Source: a virus
Direction: 5' to 3' (one strand)
IMG/VR virus record: IMGVR_UViG_3300005533_000001
Location: 1 to 35,864 of that record
DNA: 35,864 bases
Made by a program: the position numbers and the translations under genes. The notes under the pieces are model-generated. The model worked only from the letters and a program-made list of their open reading frames with translations, did no database searches and was not told the DNA's origin. The first letter of the stretch is position 1. Each line of letters begins with the position of its first letter. This document shows positions 2,972-28,746 of the stretch, piece after piece.

Positions 2972-3037
2972 GTAGTTGGTATTACAGTAGTTAACATCTA
3001 CTAACATTTTATCTTGTTGTTGTATTACACTTTGGAT

Positions 3038-3631
3038 ATGCGCAAACCAAAGCCAAAGCATATTCAAATTCCACTAGAATTAGAAACAGCCCTCGACAAA
3101 GAACGCGCAGCCAATCAGCGCTGGCGCGATTCCCATAAAGAACACATCGCCGAATATAATCGGCAGTACCACGCAGCCCACAAAGCCAAGCGCTCTGCGG
3201 ACAACAAGCGATGGAGAGAAGAAAATAAATGGAGACGTAGGCGCTATCAACGCGAATGGAATCTTGCCAATGCTGCCCATCGGCAAGAATTGAATGCGCG
3301 GTGGGGCGAGAGGCATCCGCGTTATCGTCCAGATTACAAACTGAAGTACAACTACGGCATCACGCTCGAACAGTATGAAAAAATGTTTCAGGCGCAGGAT
3401 GGGAAGTGCGCCATTTGTCCGAACCGGGCACCGGAGAGTGGGCGCGTGCGCCGCCTGCATGTTGACCACGATCACAAATGCTGTCCGGGTAACCGCGCTT
3501 GCGGCAAGTGCGTGCGCGGCCTATTGTGTTCGCGTTGCAACTTGGTCATCGGAAGCGTGGAGGAAAATATGGAGCTATTGATCCAGATGATCGAATACAT
3601 CCGTGCACATACTTCCCCAACTCCCCAATAA
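3038..3631 (+). CDS. Endonuclease VII family (HNH-like) nuclease with N-terminal basic/charged extension
   Basis: C-terminal GITLEQYEKMFQAQDGKCAICPN...LHVDHDHKCCPGNRACGKCVRGLLCSRCNLVIG matches the recombination endonuclease VII signature (CxxC, HVDHDH, GLLCxxCN). The real start is ATG 3038; the track's 3014 is a TTG. The N-terminal 100 aa are Lys/Arg/Glu-rich. Confidence 0.8.
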   Translation: MRKPKPKHIQIPLELETALDKERAANQRWRDSHKEHIAEYNRQYHAAHKAKRSADNKRWREENKWRRRRYQREWNLANAAHRQELNARWGERHPRYRPDYKLKYNYGITLEQYEKMFQAQDGKCAICPNRAPESGRVRRLHVDHDHKCCPGNRACGKCVRGLLCSRCNLVIGSVEENMELLIQMIEYIRAHTSPTPQ

Positions 3632-3639
3632 TGTAGTTC

Positions 3640-6063
3640 GTGCCTTATTTAAGCGAATTTCCGAATCTGGCGATTGGTCGCTGGTACACGGGCTGGGTGA
3701 CCCTTCGTAATCAATTAGTTACCCCGATTCGCTTGGTGGGCCGCCGCATCATCGAACTTTACGATGCGCTCCTAGCGGGCAACGATCTGGAAATCACTCC
3801 GCGCCTGACGCTGATGCGCCGCCCCGGCTACCTCTCTTACTTTAATAGCCAACTCAATGGAGCAATGCTTAGTGTCTATAGCTGGCGCACGGCGAGTCAG
3901 GGCGTGTACCAGATTTTCGATACTACGGTTGACGTTGAATATGTCGCTCCCGGCGTTTCGGCACCGGTGGTAATTTTCACCAAGCCAAAAACGGCGCTAT
4001 ACCAGCGCGCATTCTTCTTTGGCGTAGGCAATTATCTATTTGGGAGCGGACAGGGATTCTCCTTTAAGTGGGACGGCGGAAGTCCGCAAGGGGTAACCAA
4101 CTGGGGGATTGCGAACACATCCGGCAGTTCCAGTGGTTCGGCGGGCGCGGGAGCCAATGGCCATGCAAGCGCATTGGCGTCATGGTCAAATCCCAACAAT
4201 GTTACGTCAACTACCCAATATGCCAGCGTGGCGCTTACCTCCTATCCCACCATACATTGTCAATCGAATACGCTGCTGGCTACTCAATTTGGCCTCGCTG
4301 CCTCTGGTCACATCACTGGTGTACAGATCAGCTTTACAGCGTACTGCACGGGTGGCGGCAATACCCAACTCGATGTAAGTCCGGCACTTTCCGGCTATGG
4401 CTTTGGCAACGAGAAGCAACTATTTCTTGGGGTCACCCCGCTTACTTATGTGCTTGGCGGTTCTTCTGACCTATGGGGTTTTAACAACTGGAGTAATACG
4501 TTAGTAAACGGTTCCACCTTTGGAGCGGCGATATCGGCATTCAACGGAGACAGCAACACCGGCAAGACTGTATTTGTCGATAATGTACAGATCACGGTCT
4601 TCACTGGCAATGTTCCCACGGTAAGTCCAACCGGCAGTGGTTCGCTCACCACGGTCAATGGGTGGTCATATGTGCAGGCATTCGGCAACTCTTCTAGCGG
4701 CGAAGTATCAAATGCCAGCTTGTCATCAGCGAACACCGGGCCATTTACCAATCAGGCAGGCGTCACGGTCAACCTTACTGCATCAACTGACCCTCAAGTG
4801 AACCAAATCCACGTGTATCGCACCACGGATTCGGGTGGCGGAGCTATCTTTTACGAGCTACCTACATCCCCTTATCCAAATACTACTGGGCCAATCACTG
4901 ATACCTCCCCAGATACAGCGCTGAATGTCAGGAGCATCGCGGCCACAGATTTACAAAACACCCCACCGCCAAGCAACCTAGTCGCCATGGAATGGTTCGC
5001 CGGTCGCATGTGGGGCGCGGTTGGCAACCTGCTATATGCTTCTACCGGCCCGGATTCACTCAGCGGCTTACAACCATCCAACTGGAACCCAGCCTATGTG
5101 TGGGTGCTGCCTACTGCTATCCAGAAGTTAGTAGCCACCCCGAATGGAATGCTGGTCATGTGTCTAGATGACTGCTACGTCGTGCGCGGTACGGCCACAA
5201 TCAACTTCACGGTTAACGAATTCCTGCGCGATATGGGTACCCGCAGCTACAATGCGGTGGATACTGACGGGTCAAATATCTATGTCTTCACGTCAGACCG
5301 CCAGTTCCTTCAGGTAGCCGCGAACGGAATCAATGATATCGGTCAGAACATCGGTGACCAACTTCTCAATGTAGACCCCACGCAGTGTTATGTAAGCGTG
5401 TACCGCTATGGTCTGGATTCGATGCTGTTCTTATTGGATACCGTGAATGGGGTTCTGTATCCCTATAACCTAAACCAACAATGCTGGAGTCTACCGGCGC
5501 TGCTAAAGTTGGGTGCCAAGCCCACCGCCGCAGGTACCATGGAAGTCTCGCCCGGAGTATGGAAGTATCTGGTAGGCGCAGGCACACAAGTCGGCCAGCG
5601 CGACCTGAATACGTTCTCTGATCTGGGCTATGACTATTACCCACAAGCGGTGATTGGCACCATTCAGGTGGCGGATGCTTTGTCGCTGGCCAAGGTAGAG
5701 AACATCAACCTGCAACTTACGAATGTAGGATCACTACCATCGCTTTCCATTCTGGCCAATGATACCGGCGTAGTATTGAGCAACCCAGTGACGAGCCAGA
5801 TCACGCTGTCAGATTTTAGCCAGATCACGGGGCCGGGAATTCCGCTGGTTGAGCCTCCAACTTACGCCGAAACCCCGGTGAATTTCATCAACGTTCGCTA
5901 TCCATGGGGAGTGACGAAAGTGCCCCAACAGTTGCAATATCTACAATTGCTTTTGCAGTGGAATGTGCAAGAGGCCGTACAGAATGAACTGCTCGCGCTA
6001 GGCATCAGCGGCAAACAGGAAGGCGGCCCACAAACACAACTACCGCAGCTTGAGGGAATTTAA
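3640..6063 (+). CDS. large virion structural protein (tail tube or adsorption apparatus-like)
   Basis: 807 aa. Extensive Gly/Ser/Thr/Asn beta-rich regions. Sits in the structural operon. Confidence 0.55.
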   Translation: MPYLSEFPNLAIGRWYTGWVTLRNQLVTPIRLVGRRIIELYDALLAGNDLEITPRLTLMRRPGYLSYFNSQLNGAMLSVYSWRTASQGVYQIFDTTVDVEYVAPGVSAPVVIFTKPKTALYQRAFFFGVGNYLFGSGQGFSFKWDGGSPQGVTNWGIANTSGSSSGSAGAGANGHASALASWSNPNNVTSTTQYASVALTSYPTIHCQSNTLLATQFGLAASGHITGVQISFTAYCTGGGNTQLDVSPALSGYGFGNEKQLFLGVTPLTYVLGGSSDLWGFNNWSNTLVNGSTFGAAISAFNGDSNTGKTVFVDNVQITVFTGNVPTVSPTGSGSLTTVNGWSYVQAFGNSSSGEVSNASLSSANTGPFTNQAGVTVNLTASTDPQVNQIHVYRTTDSGGGAIFYELPTSPYPNTTGPITDTSPDTALNVRSIAATDLQNTPPPSNLVAMEWFAGRMWGAVGNLLYASTGPDSLSGLQPSNWNPAYVWVLPTAIQKLVATPNGMLVMCLDDCYVVRGTATINFTVNEFLRDMGTRSYNAVDTDGSNIYVFTSDRQFLQVAANGINDIGQNIGDQLLNVDPTQCYVSVYRYGLDSMLFLLDTVNGVLYPYNLNQQCWSLPALLKLGAKPTAAGTMEVSPGVWKYLVGAGTQVGQRDLNTFSDLGYDYYPQAVIGTIQVADALSLAKVENINLQLTNVGSLPSLSILANDTGVVLSNPVTSQITLSDFSQITGPGIPLVEPPTYAETPVNFINVRYPWGVTKVPQQLQYLQLLLQWNVQEAVQNELLALGISGKQEGGPQTQLPQLEGI

Positions 6064-13729: not shown

Positions 13730-14374
13730 CTATTTCCATACAATTACCTCTCTCTCATTACGTCCACCAAGATAAGCGAAAATCTCCGACTTGGCAACAG
13801 TTTTTGTCTTGACTTTGCCATTTTGGCTGAAGCGCTTGGCGAACCATTCCGCCTTGGCTTTATCGAGCGTATAGGAGATGCCGTGGGCATTCTTCCCCGG
13901 CTGATAGCCGCGATAGATCGTCAATTTCTCCGGCAGCTTGGCGAACTCGGCCCGGTCTTCTTCGTCCATGAAATATTCGCGACCGGGGCGCTTGGACTTC
14001 AGCAGGCGCAGCCATACATGGAATCTGTGGCCGATATTTTCGGAATCAATCCAGACTGACCCCAATAGCTTCCAATACTCCTGATCGGTCAACTTGGGTT
14101 CAATGGCCTGAAACGCATCCAGCCGATAGGGCCGCTCATGCAACCAGATGTATTGACTCCAGTTATGCTTCTTGGTGGCCAATTCGATTTGCTTCCGCTT
14201 CTCGCGCAGCATTTGGTTGGCCCACGCATTCAATTGCTCATGGTGGGGAACCATGTAGACCAGTGGATGGCGGATGCAGGTGCCCAGACGGGGCAATTCC
14301 TCTCTGTATTGCTCCAGTTCGGCACACAGTAGCTCCTGCTTCTCTAATAGGTTTTTGCAGTCAATGGCGATCAT
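13730..14374 (-). CDS. hypothetical protein
   Basis: 214 aa. Part of the leftward operon. Confidence 0.5.
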   Translation of the reverse strand: MIAIDCKNLLEKQELLCAELEQYREELPRLGTCIRHPLVYMVPHHEQLNAWANQMLREKRKQIELATKKHNWSQYIWLHERPYRLDAFQAIEPKLTDQEYWKLLGSVWIDSENIGHRFHVWLRLLKSKRPGREYFMDEEDRAEFAKLPEKLTIYRGYQPGKNAHGISYTLDKAKAEWFAKRFSQNGKVKTKTVAKSEIFAYLGGRNEREVIVWK

Positions 14375-14376
14375 GG

Positions 14377-14538
14377 CTAATTGGACGCGGATTCAAAGGC
14401 GAGGGATTCTCTTTCTTCGTCAGCTTCCCGTGAAAAGCGTTCCATGTCCGCCTCGCAGGCACCGCATAACCCAAGCGTCCCCGGCCCGTCATATCCGCAA
14501 TATGCGCATTCATTTCCCATTTCTGTGTTCCAGATCAT
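14377..14538 (-). CDS. small zinc-ribbon protein (53 aa; CAYCG...LCGACE)
   Basis: Found by hand translation; it is shorter than the 60-aa track cutoff. Its ATG overlaps the recombinase stop as ATGA, and its stop lies 3 nt before the next gene. Confidence 0.4.
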   Translation of the reverse strand: MIWNTEMGNECAYCGYDGPGTLGLCGACEADMERFSREADEERESLAFESASN

Positions 14539-15086
14539 GCTGCTTCTCCCATAGCTTCGATGACGGAATCGAAGGCAGTAATTGAATCTTCGAGCAGGTA
14601 TGCGCCAGTGCTGGCCATGGACTTGTGCCCAGCCGTCATTCTGAGGCTTTCAATCCCGGCCCCGGCCTTGCGTGCCTGCATCAATCGACTGTGCTTCAGG
14701 ACGTGGGGGAAGCACAGACGCCGGGGAATTCCCGCCGCCTTGCCATACTTTCGCATAATGTACGAAAAGTGGTCGCGGCCCGTGCGCGCCGATGCTCCGG
14801 CAGGCAAGGGGAAGATCGGCCCCGGTGGGCAGGCTTCCAGCAATGTCTTTTCATCCATCAGCGGGTCATCCGGGCGCGATACAAGCCGCTGATCGGTCGC
14901 ATATGACCCCTTGAGCCGTTTAATGGCGATAATGCCGCCCTCAATGTGCTCCCGCCGCAACATATACGCCTCTGAGGCGCGCAATGCATGCAGGTACGTC
15001 ACCAGAATCAATAGGTGATCTTGCGCGCTCTCTTTTTGGGCCGCGCCTAGAAGGGCGCGCACCTGTTCATGGGTCATGTGTTTCAT
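14535..15086 (-). CDS. short tyrosine recombinase / phage-integrase-family catalytic domain protein
   Basis: 183 aa. ALRASE (box I Arg), PHVLKHS (H-x-x-K/R-H) and GHKSMASTGAYL (HxxxxTxxY nucleophile tyrosine) are all present. There is no N-terminal arm or core-binding domain. Confidence 0.55.
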   Translation of the reverse strand: MKHMTHEQVRALLGAAQKESAQDHLLILVTYLHALRASEAYMLRREHIEGGIIAIKRLKGSYATDQRLVSRPDDPLMDEKTLLEACPPGPIFPLPAGASARTGRDHFSYIMRKYGKAAGIPRRLCFPHVLKHSRLMQARKAGAGIESLRMTAGHKSMASTGAYLLEDSITAFDSVIEAMGEAA

Positions 15087-15289
15087 GGTTTATTACCGGC
15101 GAATAGCTCCGGGTTCCCCCATCTCTTGCCGCCCCACTCGATTATGCGCTGGGGCAGGTCAATGTGGCCGTATTCGTACATTTTGCCGTACAGAATCCCA
15201 ACAAAAGACCCCGGCGATACGAATGTCTTGTGACCATCCCACCAATTCTGTGGATGCCAAAATTCGGCAGGACGTGCCATGCTCCTCAT
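15083..15289 (-). CDS. hypothetical small protein (Trp-rich)
   Basis: 68 aa. ATGA overlaps at both ends. Confidence 0.4.
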   Translation of the reverse strand: MRSMARPAEFWHPQNWWDGHKTFVSPGSFVGILYGKMYEYGHIDLPQRIIEWGGKRWGNPELFAGNKP

Positions 15290-15627
15290 TGCTTCAACTC
15301 CCAGAACTTGGCATGCAGGTTGCGGATGAATACGCGGCCCTCTTCACCCATCGGCCCGTCGAACTTCTCAATTGACCGCTGACAAAGCCCATCGCTGTCG
15401 CCCGCATCAATCAGCGCCGCGCAGGTGGCGCAGGCCGCCCAAAGGTTATCCGTGCCCAAGTTCAACTTGCGGCCCAGTAATTGGACTTCCATAGTGAATT
15501 CGGGGCAGGGGTAACCCTTCACAATTGGCGTCTCACTACAGAAGTCACAAACTTCTGTCCCCGGCTCCGGGGATAAAGTGAGGGTGAGTTTCCCATCAAC
15601 TTCGGTGATCTTTTCTTTTACGGTCAC
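15286..15627 (-). CDS. hypothetical Cys-rich protein (CDFC...CP...CATC)
   Basis: 113 aa. Operon context with ATGA overlap. Confidence 0.45.
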   Translation of the reverse strand: MTVKEKITEVDGKLTLTLSPEPGTEVCDFCSETPIVKGYPCPEFTMEVQLLGRKLNLGTDNLWAACATCAALIDAGDSDGLCQRSIEKFDGPMGEEGRVFIRNLHAKFWELKQ

Positions 15628-15941
15628 GCTGCTACTCCCTGTCTGCCCGCATAGCGCGGGAGAAAGAAATCCTTCAATTTGCCAGTCTCCCGGTCAATAT
15701 GACGGCGGATGCCGAATATGTCATGGACGAAATCCGTCTGATCGGCCCGCAGCAATTCGGCTAATTGCAATGGGCAGCCGTTCGCGTGAACGGCAATCAC
15801 GTCCATAAGCGTTTCGCGCTGGAACTTGGTGGCTTCTTTATTCGACATAGCGCCGAATGCCTTGTCAGCCACTTTGACCGCGCGTTCTGCGATGCGTGCG
15901 GCCAGCGCATGATCTTCTTTGCTTGCGTTCCAGTTAATCAT
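15624..15941 (-). CDS. hypothetical protein
   Basis: 105 aa. 4-nt overlaps with both neighbours. Confidence 0.45.
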   Translation of the reverse strand: MINWNASKEDHALAARIAERAVKVADKAFGAMSNKEATKFQRETLMDVIAVHANGCPLQLAELLRADQTDFVHDIFGIRRHIDRETGKLKDFFLPRYAGRQGVAA

Positions 15942-24180: not shown

Positions 24181-24294
24181 GTGCGGTCAAAATGCGTTTT
24201 GTAGGTTAGGTCAGGGTGCGGAGGTAATGCGGAAGGGAAAAACGGCGGGAAGATTTTAATTGCATCGCGGGGGGATTGAGGGTAATCTCATCTC

Positions 24295-24308
24295 ATATCA
24301 TATGATAT
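24295..24308. promoter_or_regulatory. perfect 14-bp palindrome ATATCATATGATAT downstream of candidate promoter TTGCAT-17-TAATCT (24260-24288)
   Basis: Palindrome read directly from the sequence. The -35 matches 5/6 and the -10 is weak. Confidence 0.35.
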
Positions 24309-24496
24309 CAACCGGCAGCCAGCCCGCAGCGGGGATAACGGTGTTGGAGGTGCTGATCTATTACGGGTTGTTACTGGCCGCCGCCATGATTTGGCTTCAT
24401 TTCGGCATGAAGAAGTGCCGCTATTGCGGCAGACATAGGATGGATGGACACAAAAAGGAGTGCCCGCGCTATAGCGCCAAGAGAGGATACCTACTA

Positions 24497-24961
24497 ATGG
24501 AAACACACGTTGAACTGCCCAAGCCCACCTTGAACGTCGAACTGCTGTTGAAGGTGAAAAACCATATTCTCGAAGAACCCAAGCGCCTGCGCATGTCGAA
24601 GTGGTTCATTAAGGGCACCCCGAATGGCCATGGCAGATCAGTATCGCGTGGTTACGGCGAACCCATCGACTTTGAAGTCCCAGCTTGCGGCACTGTGGGC
24701 TGTATTGCCGGATGGACAGAACTGCTCAACCACCCTGAAGATTACGAAGGTGCCACCGGCATCAGTGGAGTGCACTGCGGTCGCGCCAAGAACGAACTTG
24801 GCCTGATAGACCAAAGCCTGTTTTTTGTTGATTGCTGGCCAGAACCCTACAAGTCCGACTATTACCAAGCCGAAGACAACCAGACGCGCGCCCAGATTGT
24901 AGGCGCGCTCATCGACAAACTGATTGAAGTTGGCGAAGAACAGCTTTTCGGGCGGGAGTAA
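24497..24961 (+). CDS. paralog A of a duplicated Cys-motif protein family (KHILEEPKRLRM ... CGTVGCIAGW ... LFFV.CWPEPY)
   Basis: GAGAGGA RBS upstream of ATG 24497. The in-frame upstream ATG at 24406 would add a CRYC...ECPRY zinc-knuckle extension. Shares a conserved nucleotide block with 28270-28317. Confidence 0.55.
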   Translation: METHVELPKPTLNVELLLKVKNHILEEPKRLRMSKWFIKGTPNGHGRSVSRGYGEPIDFEVPACGTVGCIAGWTELLNHPEDYEGATGISGVHCGRAKNELGLIDQSLFFVDCWPEPYKSDYYQAEDNQTRAQIVGALIDKLIEVGEEQLFGRE

Positions 24962-28056: not shown

Positions 28057-28331
28057 TTATTACCCGCACCGATGTGTGCCAGTGCGACGAATGCGGGCAT
28101 CCGTGGCTATCGCGTTGCAAGGGCGGGGCGCTCCCCGCGCAATGTCCGCACTGTCACACGCGGCACTGGAATGATTCTGTAATACCATTACCGAGAAACA
28201 GGAGAACCAATGGCAAAATCAAAAGCCGCCAAATACAAAGTTCCCGCAGCGGGCCGCAAATTGTTGTTGCGGGTAAAGAAACATATCCTCGAAGAACCCA
28301 AGCGCCTGCGCATGGCCGAATGGATGCTTAG
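28053..28331 (+). CDS. small zinc-ribbon protein (CQCDECGH...CPHCH)
   Basis: ATGA overlap with the RHH gene. The 3' end overlaps the next gene by about 120 nt, so the true end is uncertain. Confidence 0.35.
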   Translation: MIITRTDVCQCDECGHPWLSRCKGGALPAQCPHCHTRHWNDSVIPLPRNRRTNGKIKSRQIQSSRSGPQIVVAGKETYPRRTQAPAHGRMDA

Positions 28332-28746
28332 CAAGGAATATTGCGCCAACATGGAGCCAATTTTCCAAACCGCTGGTACGGCTTGGGGAGAACCCCCGCG
28401 CAGAGGAATACAATGGCCATCGTGTGGTACAACCGGCTGTATTGCCGGATGGATGGAATTGCTCGCCAACGGTATGCCAGAGGGCGACGCAGACTTAATG
28501 GACAGGATGGATAGCGCTCAGGAATTCGCCTCCAAGGTGCTGGAATTTGATAAGCAGCCATGGGGCACATACACCGAACCGGGACTTTTCTTTGTGAGCG
28601 AGTGGCCATACAAATTTGCCGAGAGCTACTCGAAGGCCAAGACTCAGGCCAAGCGCGCCAAAATTGTGGCTGCCGTGATTGATGACTTCTTGGCCGACCC
28701 GGAGCCTTACCTCCCCGCACCAGAACCCGAGGAAGGCGATGACTAA
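28210..28746 (+). CDS. paralog B of the duplicated Cys-motif family (KHILEEPKRLRM ... CGTTGCIAGW ... LFFVSEWPY)
   Basis: 178 aa. CAGGAG RBS upstream. Clear protein and nucleotide similarity to 24497..24961. Confidence 0.55.
   Translation: MAKSKAAKYKVPAAGRKLLLRVKKHILEEPKRLRMAEWMLSKEYCANMEPIFQTAGTAWGEPPRRGIQWPSCGTTGCIAGWMELLANGMPEGDADLMDRMDSAQEFASKVLEFDKQPWGTYTEPGLFFVSEWPYKFAESYSKAKTQAKRAKIVAAVIDDFLADPEPYLPAPEPEEGDD

Follow-up and report, generated by a model that had tools for sequence, protein, structure and literature searches.

The stretch of viral DNA analysed here, called the window throughout, comprises 35,864 nucleotides (positions 1 to 35,864 of IMG/VR record IMGVR_UViG_3300005533_000001). 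Between positions 14,377 and 15,289 it carries three coupled genes, the middle one of which encodes a protein of 183 amino acids (aa). This protein is a member of the tyrosine recombinase superfamily, outside any named subfamily. It consists of the catalytic domain only and has a lysine where almost all tyrosine recombinases have their second catalytic arginine (Arg II). We consider it reasonably probable that the protein is a catalytically competent minimal recombinase which serves the phage in an accessory function on its own DNA, not as an integrase, and that the neighbouring 53-aa and 68-aa proteins are orphans.

A catalytic-domain-only recombinase with lysine at the Arg II position

The Pfam profile PF00589 (Phage_integrase) matches the 183-aa protein with 51.2 bits (cutoff 27.1), covering residues 3–164 and profile positions 2–166 of 172. 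As the match begins at residue 3, there is no N-terminal domain. Arg I is preceded by only 35 residues, and arm-binding and core-binding domains are absent. The first-pass annotation of the window had described a short tyrosine recombinase without these domains, which is borne out by the PF00589 coverage.

In an alignment of 13 homologues (173–200 aa), residues R36, S38, E39, R57, K59, G60, S61, H128, L130, K131, H132, G153 and Y163 are invariant. Comparison of the family profile with solved structures returned XerA, XerD, XerH and integrase chains (best E = 1.3e-25). The PHvLKH segment of the family aligns on PHVLRH of XerD and XerA, with Lys131 opposite R247 of XerD; Lys131 therefore occupies the Arg II position. 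All other catalytic residues are in place, namely R36 (Arg I), E39 (Glu/Asp I), K59 (beta-hairpin Lys), H128 (His II), H154 (His/Trp III) and the nucleophile Y163. The XerD/XerA profile alignment thus confirms what had been read from the sequence at first, a Lys in place of the box-II Arg within an otherwise retained catalytic set.

The AlphaFold2 model computed from the alignment has a mean predicted local distance difference test (pLDDT) score of 94. Foldseek comparison with the PDB gave 121 matches (E ≤ 10), 42 of them at E ≤ 1e-3. The best 50 of the 121 matches are all tyrosine recombinases, with template modelling (TM) scores of 0.6–0.73, mostly over the catalytic domain. XerH and XerA are the top hits, and P2 Int, lambda Int and HP1 are also among these 50. 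The model contains a helix at residues 168–182, after Tyr163, as in recombinases whose C-terminal helix touches the neighbouring subunit.

Arg II ranks among the two most conserved residues of tyrosine recombinases in general, the position being occupied by Arg in 99.1% and by Lys in 0.5% of the sequences (Gibb et al., PMC2943603). The state of this position in the family was determined by an unbiased profile search, without any sequence-pattern filter, of 1.84 billion cluster representatives. It returned 313 representatives at E ≤ 1e-30, the best 161 of which were used for the residue survey. Lys is present in 144 of these 161 and Arg in 16, and nothing else was seen. The remaining catalytic set is well retained: R36 in 154, K59 in 155, H128 in 150, His or Trp at position 154 in 149, and Tyr163 in 150 of the 151 representatives aligned there. 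Each of the catalytic residues, including E39 and the Tyr nucleophile, is kept in at least 92% of these diverse members. The median length is 183 aa, and 138 of the 153 near-complete sequences used for tree construction do not exceed 210 aa. Lys and Arg forms are interspersed on this rough neighbour-joining tree, which requires at least 13 changes between them. That Arg forms are scattered among Lys forms, with only these two residues occurring, indicates that a cation is required at this position, as is expected of a working active site. The codon for Lys131 (AAG) is one transition away from the Arg codon AGG, and the persistence of Lys therefore suggests that it is being kept.

The change from Arg to Lys had been regarded as unusual for an active enzyme. 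This concern is not supported, as Lys is the norm within the family and the R292K mutant of Cre is active in vivo and in vitro (PMC2943603). Among all single substitutions it is the one with the most covalent intermediate, indicating a religation defect, and the corresponding R223K mutant of vaccinia type IB topoisomerase (TopIB) has about 10% of its activity left (PMC2943603). Full-text literature searches revealed no description of a natural family with Lys at Arg II. Apparently, the family is large (hundreds of clusters at 50% identity) and undescribed; its carriers are the phages and prophages found in soil bacteria of the Acidobacteriota type. As only Lys and Arg are tolerated and the catalytic set is otherwise intact, the 183-aa enzyme is, as far as can be judged from sequence, probably active. 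By analogy with the Cre mutant, its kinetics should be shifted towards a longer-lived covalent intermediate, with slower religation than in Arg enzymes.

A pseudo-enzyme, in which the recombinase fold is reused for a DNA-binding regulator, has a precedent in YopR of phage SPbeta, which has a tyrosine-recombinase fold and no activity (bioRxiv 10.1101/2022.10.21.513154). The absence of the canonical Arg II from the window protein would be in line with such a role. YopR, however, keeps only three of the seven catalytic residues, its Arg and His positions being occupied by Ser, Val and Asn (bioRxiv 10.1101/2022.10.21.513154), whereas six of the seven are canonical in the window protein and the seventh is a conservative Lys. 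This, together with the family-wide retention of the catalytic residues and the activity of Cre R292K, makes a pseudo-enzyme very unlikely.

Genomic contexts and the slot ahead of the terminase genes

A scan of viral contigs identified 98 relatives, and 80 loci were kept; all of the proteins are about 175–200 aa long. In a genome scan, family members were found almost only in metagenome-assembled genomes (MAGs) of Acidobacteriota (Acidiferrales, Terriglobales, Acidobacteriaceae, Korobacteraceae), some of them inside large contigs. Only one carrier is available in culture, the podovirus Tunturi 3 (97.6 kb) of Tunturiibacter, whose gp84 is 32% identical to the window protein and is annotated as ‘integrase’. 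The Tunturi viruses are reported to show lytic cycles despite such annotations (PMC11924767). The contig that holds the window is about 102 kb long and has an SU10-type adaptor and two endonuclease VII genes; the phage has no close isolate. The region shows no DNA similarity to known phages, and a tail protein is likewise without a match.

Three genomic contexts can be distinguished. (i) In 55 of 83 loci, mostly on contigs of about 40 kb, the recombinase gene is located at most 2 kb upstream of the gene for a conserved basic protein of about 110 aa. The distance between the two is mostly 50 nt or less, and next come the genes for TerL and a P22-like portal. (ii) In a temperate subgroup (loci L005, L007, L008, L010 and L011, and the MAG loci L085 and L086) the recombinase gene comes after the tail genes. 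A canonical integrase of 334 or 391 aa is encoded about 2 kb beyond the short recombinase, at the edge of the element, in L008 and L011. (iii) In phages of about 100 kb, including that of the window, the recombinase gene is embedded in a long operon whose other genes are small and have no known function. Apart from these phage contexts, a family member is encoded at the far end of a P4-like island in a Terriglobales MAG (L088, 960–6139), which also carries an integrase, an AlpA-like excisionase and a 771-aa primase-like protein; the short recombinase thus also occurs in non-phage integrative elements.

The protein of about 110 aa is presumed, by its position before TerL only, to be a small terminase (TerS-like). 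We used it as an independent probe, which yielded 43 loci. The short tyrosine recombinase is encoded directly upstream in 33 of them. Five loci without it (L120, L125, L129, L131 and L133) have a serine recombinase of 183–207 aa in that slot (Table 1). These proteins contain the PF00239 catalytic domain (138–152 bits) and a basic tail of about 26 aa, with no helix-turn-helix (HTH) domain detected. A serine-recombinase profile found no such protein in the window or in the 83 tyrosine-recombinase loci; the two kinds never co-occur. The alternation of two unrelated recombinase families in one slot argues that site-specific recombination itself is selected there, and also that the short tyrosine enzyme is functional.

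The upstream regions point to a common transcription unit. In L003, L012, L015, L025, L035, L050 and others, a conserved terminator-like hairpin with a T-run is located about 75 nt 5' of the recombinase start; between it and the start codon lies a TTTTTGATTcTTTTTGATT leader. From locus to locus the stems of the hairpin covary (GTCCGA..TCGGAC, GACAAAA..TTTTGTC, GTCCCAA..TTGGGAC). In the terS-linked relatives, this leader, a TTTGATT repeat, directly precedes both the recombinase gene and terS. The recombinase gene therefore appears to head the packaging transcription unit.

The neighbouring small genes and the question of integration

The window genes are packed tightly on the minus strand in the order 113 aa, 68 aa, 183 aa, 53 aa and 214 aa (Table 1). 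Start and stop codons overlap as ATGA at both the 68/183 and the 183/53 junctions, and GGAG-type Shine-Dalgarno sequences precede the 53-aa and 68-aa starts by 7–8 nt (7 nt for the 53-aa gene). All three coupled minus-strand open reading frames (ORFs) of the first-pass annotation were thus recovered. The 53-aa ORF had been called unannotated. It is indeed missing from the 60-aa ORF track, but a gene caller had already detected it on the public contig of about 102 kb that spans the window, where the 68-, 183- and 53-aa genes are all present. Because of their ribosome-binding sites and the tight coupling, the two small ORFs are probably real genes.

Table 1. Coordinates of features in the window and of serine recombinase genes found ahead of terS in other loci.
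Feature	Location	Strand	Remarks
183-aa tyrosine recombinase, catalytic domain only	14535..15086	-	PF00589, family alignment, XerA/XerD profile alignment, AlphaFold2 model
Codon of R36	14981..14979	-	183-aa gene
Codon of K131	14696..14694	-	183-aa gene
Codon of Y163	14600..14598	-	183-aa gene
53-aa ORF, CxxC-9-CxxC, putative zinc ribbon, orphan	14377..14538	-	ATG overlaps recombinase stop
68-aa Trp-rich ORF, orphan	15083..15289	-	Stop overlaps recombinase start
113-aa CxxC-containing protein	15286..15627	-	Upstream, same operon; detectable relative in L004
214-aa protein, phrog_4776 (function unknown)	13730..14374	-	Next downstream in operon
DUF6874 gene	15624..15941		Holds right arm of 19-nt inverted repeat
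19-nt inverted repeat (18/19 complementary), left arm	13961..13979		Inside 214-aa coding sequence, EYFMDE
19-nt inverted repeat (18/19 complementary), right arm	15713..15731		Inside DUF6874 gene, FVHDIF
Slot serine recombinase, L120	2093-2872		
Slot serine recombinase, L125	1628-2242		
Slot serine recombinase, L129	824-1603		
Slot serine recombinase, L131	2104-2883		
Slot serine recombinase, L133	308-931		

The cysteines of the 53-aa product are arranged as C12-x2-C15...C25-x2-C28. Pfam matches are all below threshold (DZR_2 with 19.2 bits, E = 0.0011, cutoff 27; Zn_ribbon_LapB with 14.9 bits, cutoff 25.7). The 68-aa product has no match in Pfam, PHROG or NCBIfam, and scans of profile libraries revealed no excisionase or HTH family match for either protein. 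Small cysteine-pair proteins are common in this operon, which weakens a special reading of the 53-aa protein. CxxC...CxxC pairs are also present in the upstream 113-aa protein, which has a weak homologue in L004.

Among 5.8 billion proteins, the 53-aa and 68-aa products match only themselves, and a phmmer search of all ORFs from the 82 other family loci detected no homologue of either. A survey of neighbouring genes across the loci did not reveal a recurrent small CxxC protein beside the family recombinases. The closest relative sharing the gene order is L004, a viral contig of 100.9 kb with a recombinase of 49% identity and the same convergent arrangement with lysozyme and tail genes as in the window. 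An unrelated 168-aa gene directly follows the recombinase gene there, and L004 lacks the 53-, 68-, 214- and 347-aa genes. Of the small neighbouring genes, only the 113-aa one has a detectable relative in this related phage, at a distance of about 2 kb from the recombinase gene and with other genes in between. The three genes had been proposed to form a module, with the small proteins as partners of the recombinase. They are not a conserved unit: related genomes do not retain the 53-aa ORF, and the idea of a partnership fails for lack of any homologue in the protein collection, in the 82 loci or in L004. The 53-aa and 68-aa ORFs are lineage-specific orphans packed in a coupled operon, without a dedicated partnership, and look like the lineage-specific fillers usual in phage early operons.

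The gene directly downstream of the recombinase in L004 is a homologue of two phrog_889 paralogues (function unknown) at 24260–24961 and 28210–28746 of the window, which share stretches of 72 and 48 nt with 77–79% identity.

These data bear on the possibility that the recombinase is an integrase for lysogeny and that the 68-aa and 53-aa proteins act for it as excisionase or in targeting. The overlap of the 68-aa gene with the recombinase start recalls that of xis with int in lambda, a likeness of position only, and the end of the operon converges on the tail/lysis module, a typical location of int. Also consistent with integration are the occurrence of family members inside large Acidobacteriota MAG contigs and the location of the gene at a prophage edge in L085. 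In the window, however, there is no non-coding space for an attP site, no tRNA gene and no att-like repeat; the two small ORFs are orphans that even the syntenic L004 lacks, and neither matches an excisionase or HTH family. Canonical long integrases are encoded within 10 kb of the short gene in seven loci (L008, L011, L087, L089, L090, L091 and L092), and Tunturi 3 is reported to be lytic. We therefore regard a lysogeny integrase as unlikely.

No terminase gene of the window's phage was found in the 10 kb to the left of the window. Its endonuclease VII genes are located at 3014–3631 of the window and at 5931–6416 of L135. One of them lies in the middle of the structural module, between the genes for the SU10-type adaptor and an 807-aa protein. 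A cluster upstream of the structural genes (L135 1969–9010, left of the window) comprises methyltransferase, NAD-dependent epimerase/dehydratase and glycosyltransferase-like genes and may serve the modification of DNA or surface sugars.

Recombination sites, proposed role and comparison with known systems

Direct, inverted and tandem repeats in the window are unremarkable as candidates for att-, dif- or lox-like sites. The genes abut on both sides of the recombinase gene, leaving no intergenic space for attP, and the window contains neither a tRNA gene nor a second recombinase gene. The recombinase gene and its small neighbours lie between the arms of a 19-nt inverted repeat (Table 1), the only pair of such quality in the window. 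It was reached in 2 of 60 shuffles of the whole window and in none of 300 regional shuffles, with about 0.03 expected per window.

This repeat could be taken for the site of a Fim/Hin-style invertase flipping the 1.77-kb segment between the two arms, including its own gene. The closest characterised relatives are indeed of the Fim type and have the same domain-only architecture. Yet both arms are inside conserved coding sequences of the same strand (phrog_4776 and DUF6874), so that inversion would break both genes. The arms do not resemble core-type dyads, inverted repeats are not enriched around the gene in related loci, and one of the two arm-bearing genes is missing from L004. With the NCBIfam invertase models the protein reaches 34 bits, where the cutoff is 221. 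An invertase acting on this segment is thus highly improbable.

Two elements from related loci were also considered. The dyad TTGATTT-N8-9-AAATCAA is found in the terS-linked relatives (L012-L087) at three fixed offsets around the recombinase gene, that is at the start codon, within the gene about 280 nt before the stop, and just after the stop (e.g. L017, positions 5982, 6255 and 6534). About 45 of its 53 occurrences in 1 Mb are at these offsets, and it is absent from the window. The mid-gene copy is located in a protein-variable region. As a recombination site the dyad was set aside, since it is part of the TTTGATT-repeat leader, its spacers differ and it also occurs in serine-recombinase loci; it is a probable expression signal. 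The exact 14-mer ATTCCTAGTTTTGT is found inside a hairpin just downstream of the recombinase gene in L008 (7003), L010 (6557), L011 (6563), L085 (10648) and L086 (10566). The hairpin stems covary (CCGCAC/GTGCGG versus GGTAAC/GTTACC), and as no T-tract follows, this is no obvious terminator. It was discarded as a target for the window enzyme because it is limited to one temperate subgroup and has no window match above chance. In L062, a perfect 23-nt inverted repeat (4774–4796 and 5225–5247) encloses a 428-bp segment some 740 nt upstream of the gene for the family member and is possibly an invertible element.

The lack of paired sites, both among the window dyads and among inverted repeats across the loci, would suit an enzyme that nicks and closes DNA without recombining it, relaxing or marking phage DNA in the manner of type IB topoisomerases or site-specific nickases. 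Type IB topoisomerases and tyrosine recombinases have their chemistry in common (PMC2943603). A lone catalytic domain without the core-binding clamp fits poorly into a four-subunit synapse, the Lys form favours a long-lived covalent intermediate, and the gene resides in a lytic phage. On the other hand, His128 is conserved, and His II is specific for recombinases and absent from TopIB (PMC2943603). The C-terminal helix is like that by which recombinases contact neighbouring subunits, the serine recombinases in the same slot point to recombination over relaxation, and Fim recombinases do recombine without a core-binding domain. We consider a nicking-closing enzyme improbable.

The accessory recombinase that we favour would work as follows. 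Tyr163 would attack the scissile phosphate to form a 3'-phosphotyrosyl intermediate, with Arg36 and Lys131 stabilising the transition state, Lys59 acting as general acid, and His128 and His154 assisting. By analogy with Cre R292K, the Lys form may cleave readily and religate more slowly than Arg enzymes. As core-binding and arm-binding domains are lacking, the recombinase would need DNA-bending or DNA-binding helpers. Fim recombinases use IHF and Lrp in this way. Help from outside for DNA targeting, which had been suggested at first, is plausible, and so is the resolvase alternative raised alongside it. The role could be, for example, to resolve or circularise genomes during maturation, as Cre/loxP does for phage P1. 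A general function in Holliday-junction resolution was considered and is unlikely, as the phage already has endonuclease VII genes. An accessory role fits better than integration because of the canonical integrases nearby in seven loci, the lytic carrier and the lack of room for attP.

Several findings weigh against this interpretation. No recombination site of the 183-aa enzyme was identified. The number of core-type dyads in the window (11-nt arms, 5–9-nt spacers) is at chance level, with two seen and 1.45 expected, and within 2.5 kb of the gene in 93 loci the longest inverted repeats are no different from those in shuffled sequences. The neighbour of about 110 aa has no Pfam, PHROG or PDB match. 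The window gene itself is part of a leftward, early-looking operon with no adjacent terminase gene, so that the packaging-linked context may not apply to it. In L085, finally, the gene is located at the boundary of a prophage-like region that has no further integrase within 10 kb, and an integrase role is therefore possible for some members.

A packaging-linked role of the window enzyme would accordingly be one suggested by the relatives, its own gene not being located beside terS. In a broader and doubtful model, domain-only recombinases, either Lys-type tyrosine or HTH-less serine enzymes, would constitute an unrecognised packaging-linked module of Acidobacteriota phages. A separate DNA-binding protein, TerS-like or other, would direct them to a site beside the packaging origin, where they might circularise or resolve genomes like Cre/loxP of P1. 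The Lys found throughout the family would then be an adaptation by which the covalent intermediate is prolonged, and no defect. The copy in the window would have moved to the early operon of a podovirus-like phage of about 100 kb.

The gene trio of the window is not special in itself; the notable part is the family and the alternation of serine and tyrosine recombinases ahead of terS. In this large natural family Lys is the rule and Arg the exception at Arg II, in a protein cut down to the bare catalytic domain. If active, it represents a natural experiment on the contribution of Arg II, and it offers a very compact recombinase scaffold. In one group of phages the gene almost always precedes the terminase genes, and small serine recombinases can take its place there; both facts suggest a recombination step coupled to genome maturation, which is undescribed for these phages. 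Annotation of proteins of about 180 aa as ‘integrase’ should not be taken as evidence of a temperate lifestyle, the only cultured carrier being reported as lytic.

Among known systems, lambda-type integrases have arm- and core-binding domains, an attP site beside the gene and a conserved excisionase partner, and the window gene lacks all of these. The serine recombinases of the terS slot resemble the short tyrosine enzyme found in that slot in their small size, their mutual exclusion and the lack of a detected C-terminal HTH domain. They are unlike it in fold and chemistry (Ser nucleophile, 5'-phosphoserine), so that the analogy is one of position and does not imply homology, and the slot differs from the location of the window's own gene.

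The same active-site change is found in Cre R292K, TopIB R223K and the Arg II-to-Lys mutants of XerCD. These, however, are laboratory mutants of full-length enzymes, whereas the Lys of the window family is naturally selected in a protein without a DNA-binding domain. The mutants provide the sole biochemical data on Lys at this position: they retain activity, religate poorly and accumulate the covalent intermediate (PMC2943603).

Xer recombinases (XerA, XerC/D, XerH) are the best match of the catalytic domain in sequence and structure (profile E = 1e-25 to the XerA-like chain 4a8e) and have the same catalytic residues except for the Arg at Arg II. These simple recombinases, which resolve replicon dimers, have no arm-binding domains. 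With 280–360 aa they are longer and include an N-terminal core-binding domain, which the window protein lacks. They act at a 28-bp dif-type site, and none such was found in the window, where dyads are at chance level. The NCBIfam Xer models give the window protein only 27–42 bits against cutoffs of 220–335.

Fim-type invertases (FimB, FimE, FimX) are likewise about 200 aa long and consist of the catalytic domain, with no arm- or core-binding domain. Residues 2–163 of the window protein align end to end with residues 6–171 of a Fim-type invertase from Budvicia (26% identity), a true member that scores 263 bits with NF007370, and identity to E. coli FimX is 28.7%. The two types share local motifs at Arg I (LRASE) and at the catalytic Lys (RLK), whereas at Arg II the Fim-type enzymes have Arg (HxLRH) and the window protein has Lys. 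With the NCBIfam Fim models NF007370 and NF007371 the window protein scores 34.1 (cutoff 221) and 29.8 bits (cutoff 222), compared with 218–263 bits for the Budvicia members. The nearest matches of the genome scan outside the phage family are tandem pairs of Fim-type invertases (HxLRH) in Budvicia (L094, 9045–10633; L095, 9077–10618). Fim genes are located on enterobacterial chromosomes beside an invertible promoter of about 300 bp, whereas the window gene is part of a phage operon with no demonstrated switch. Sequence and structure thus place the catalytic domain of the 183-aa protein nearest to the Xer type, whereas architecture and full-length alignment place the protein nearest to the Fim type.

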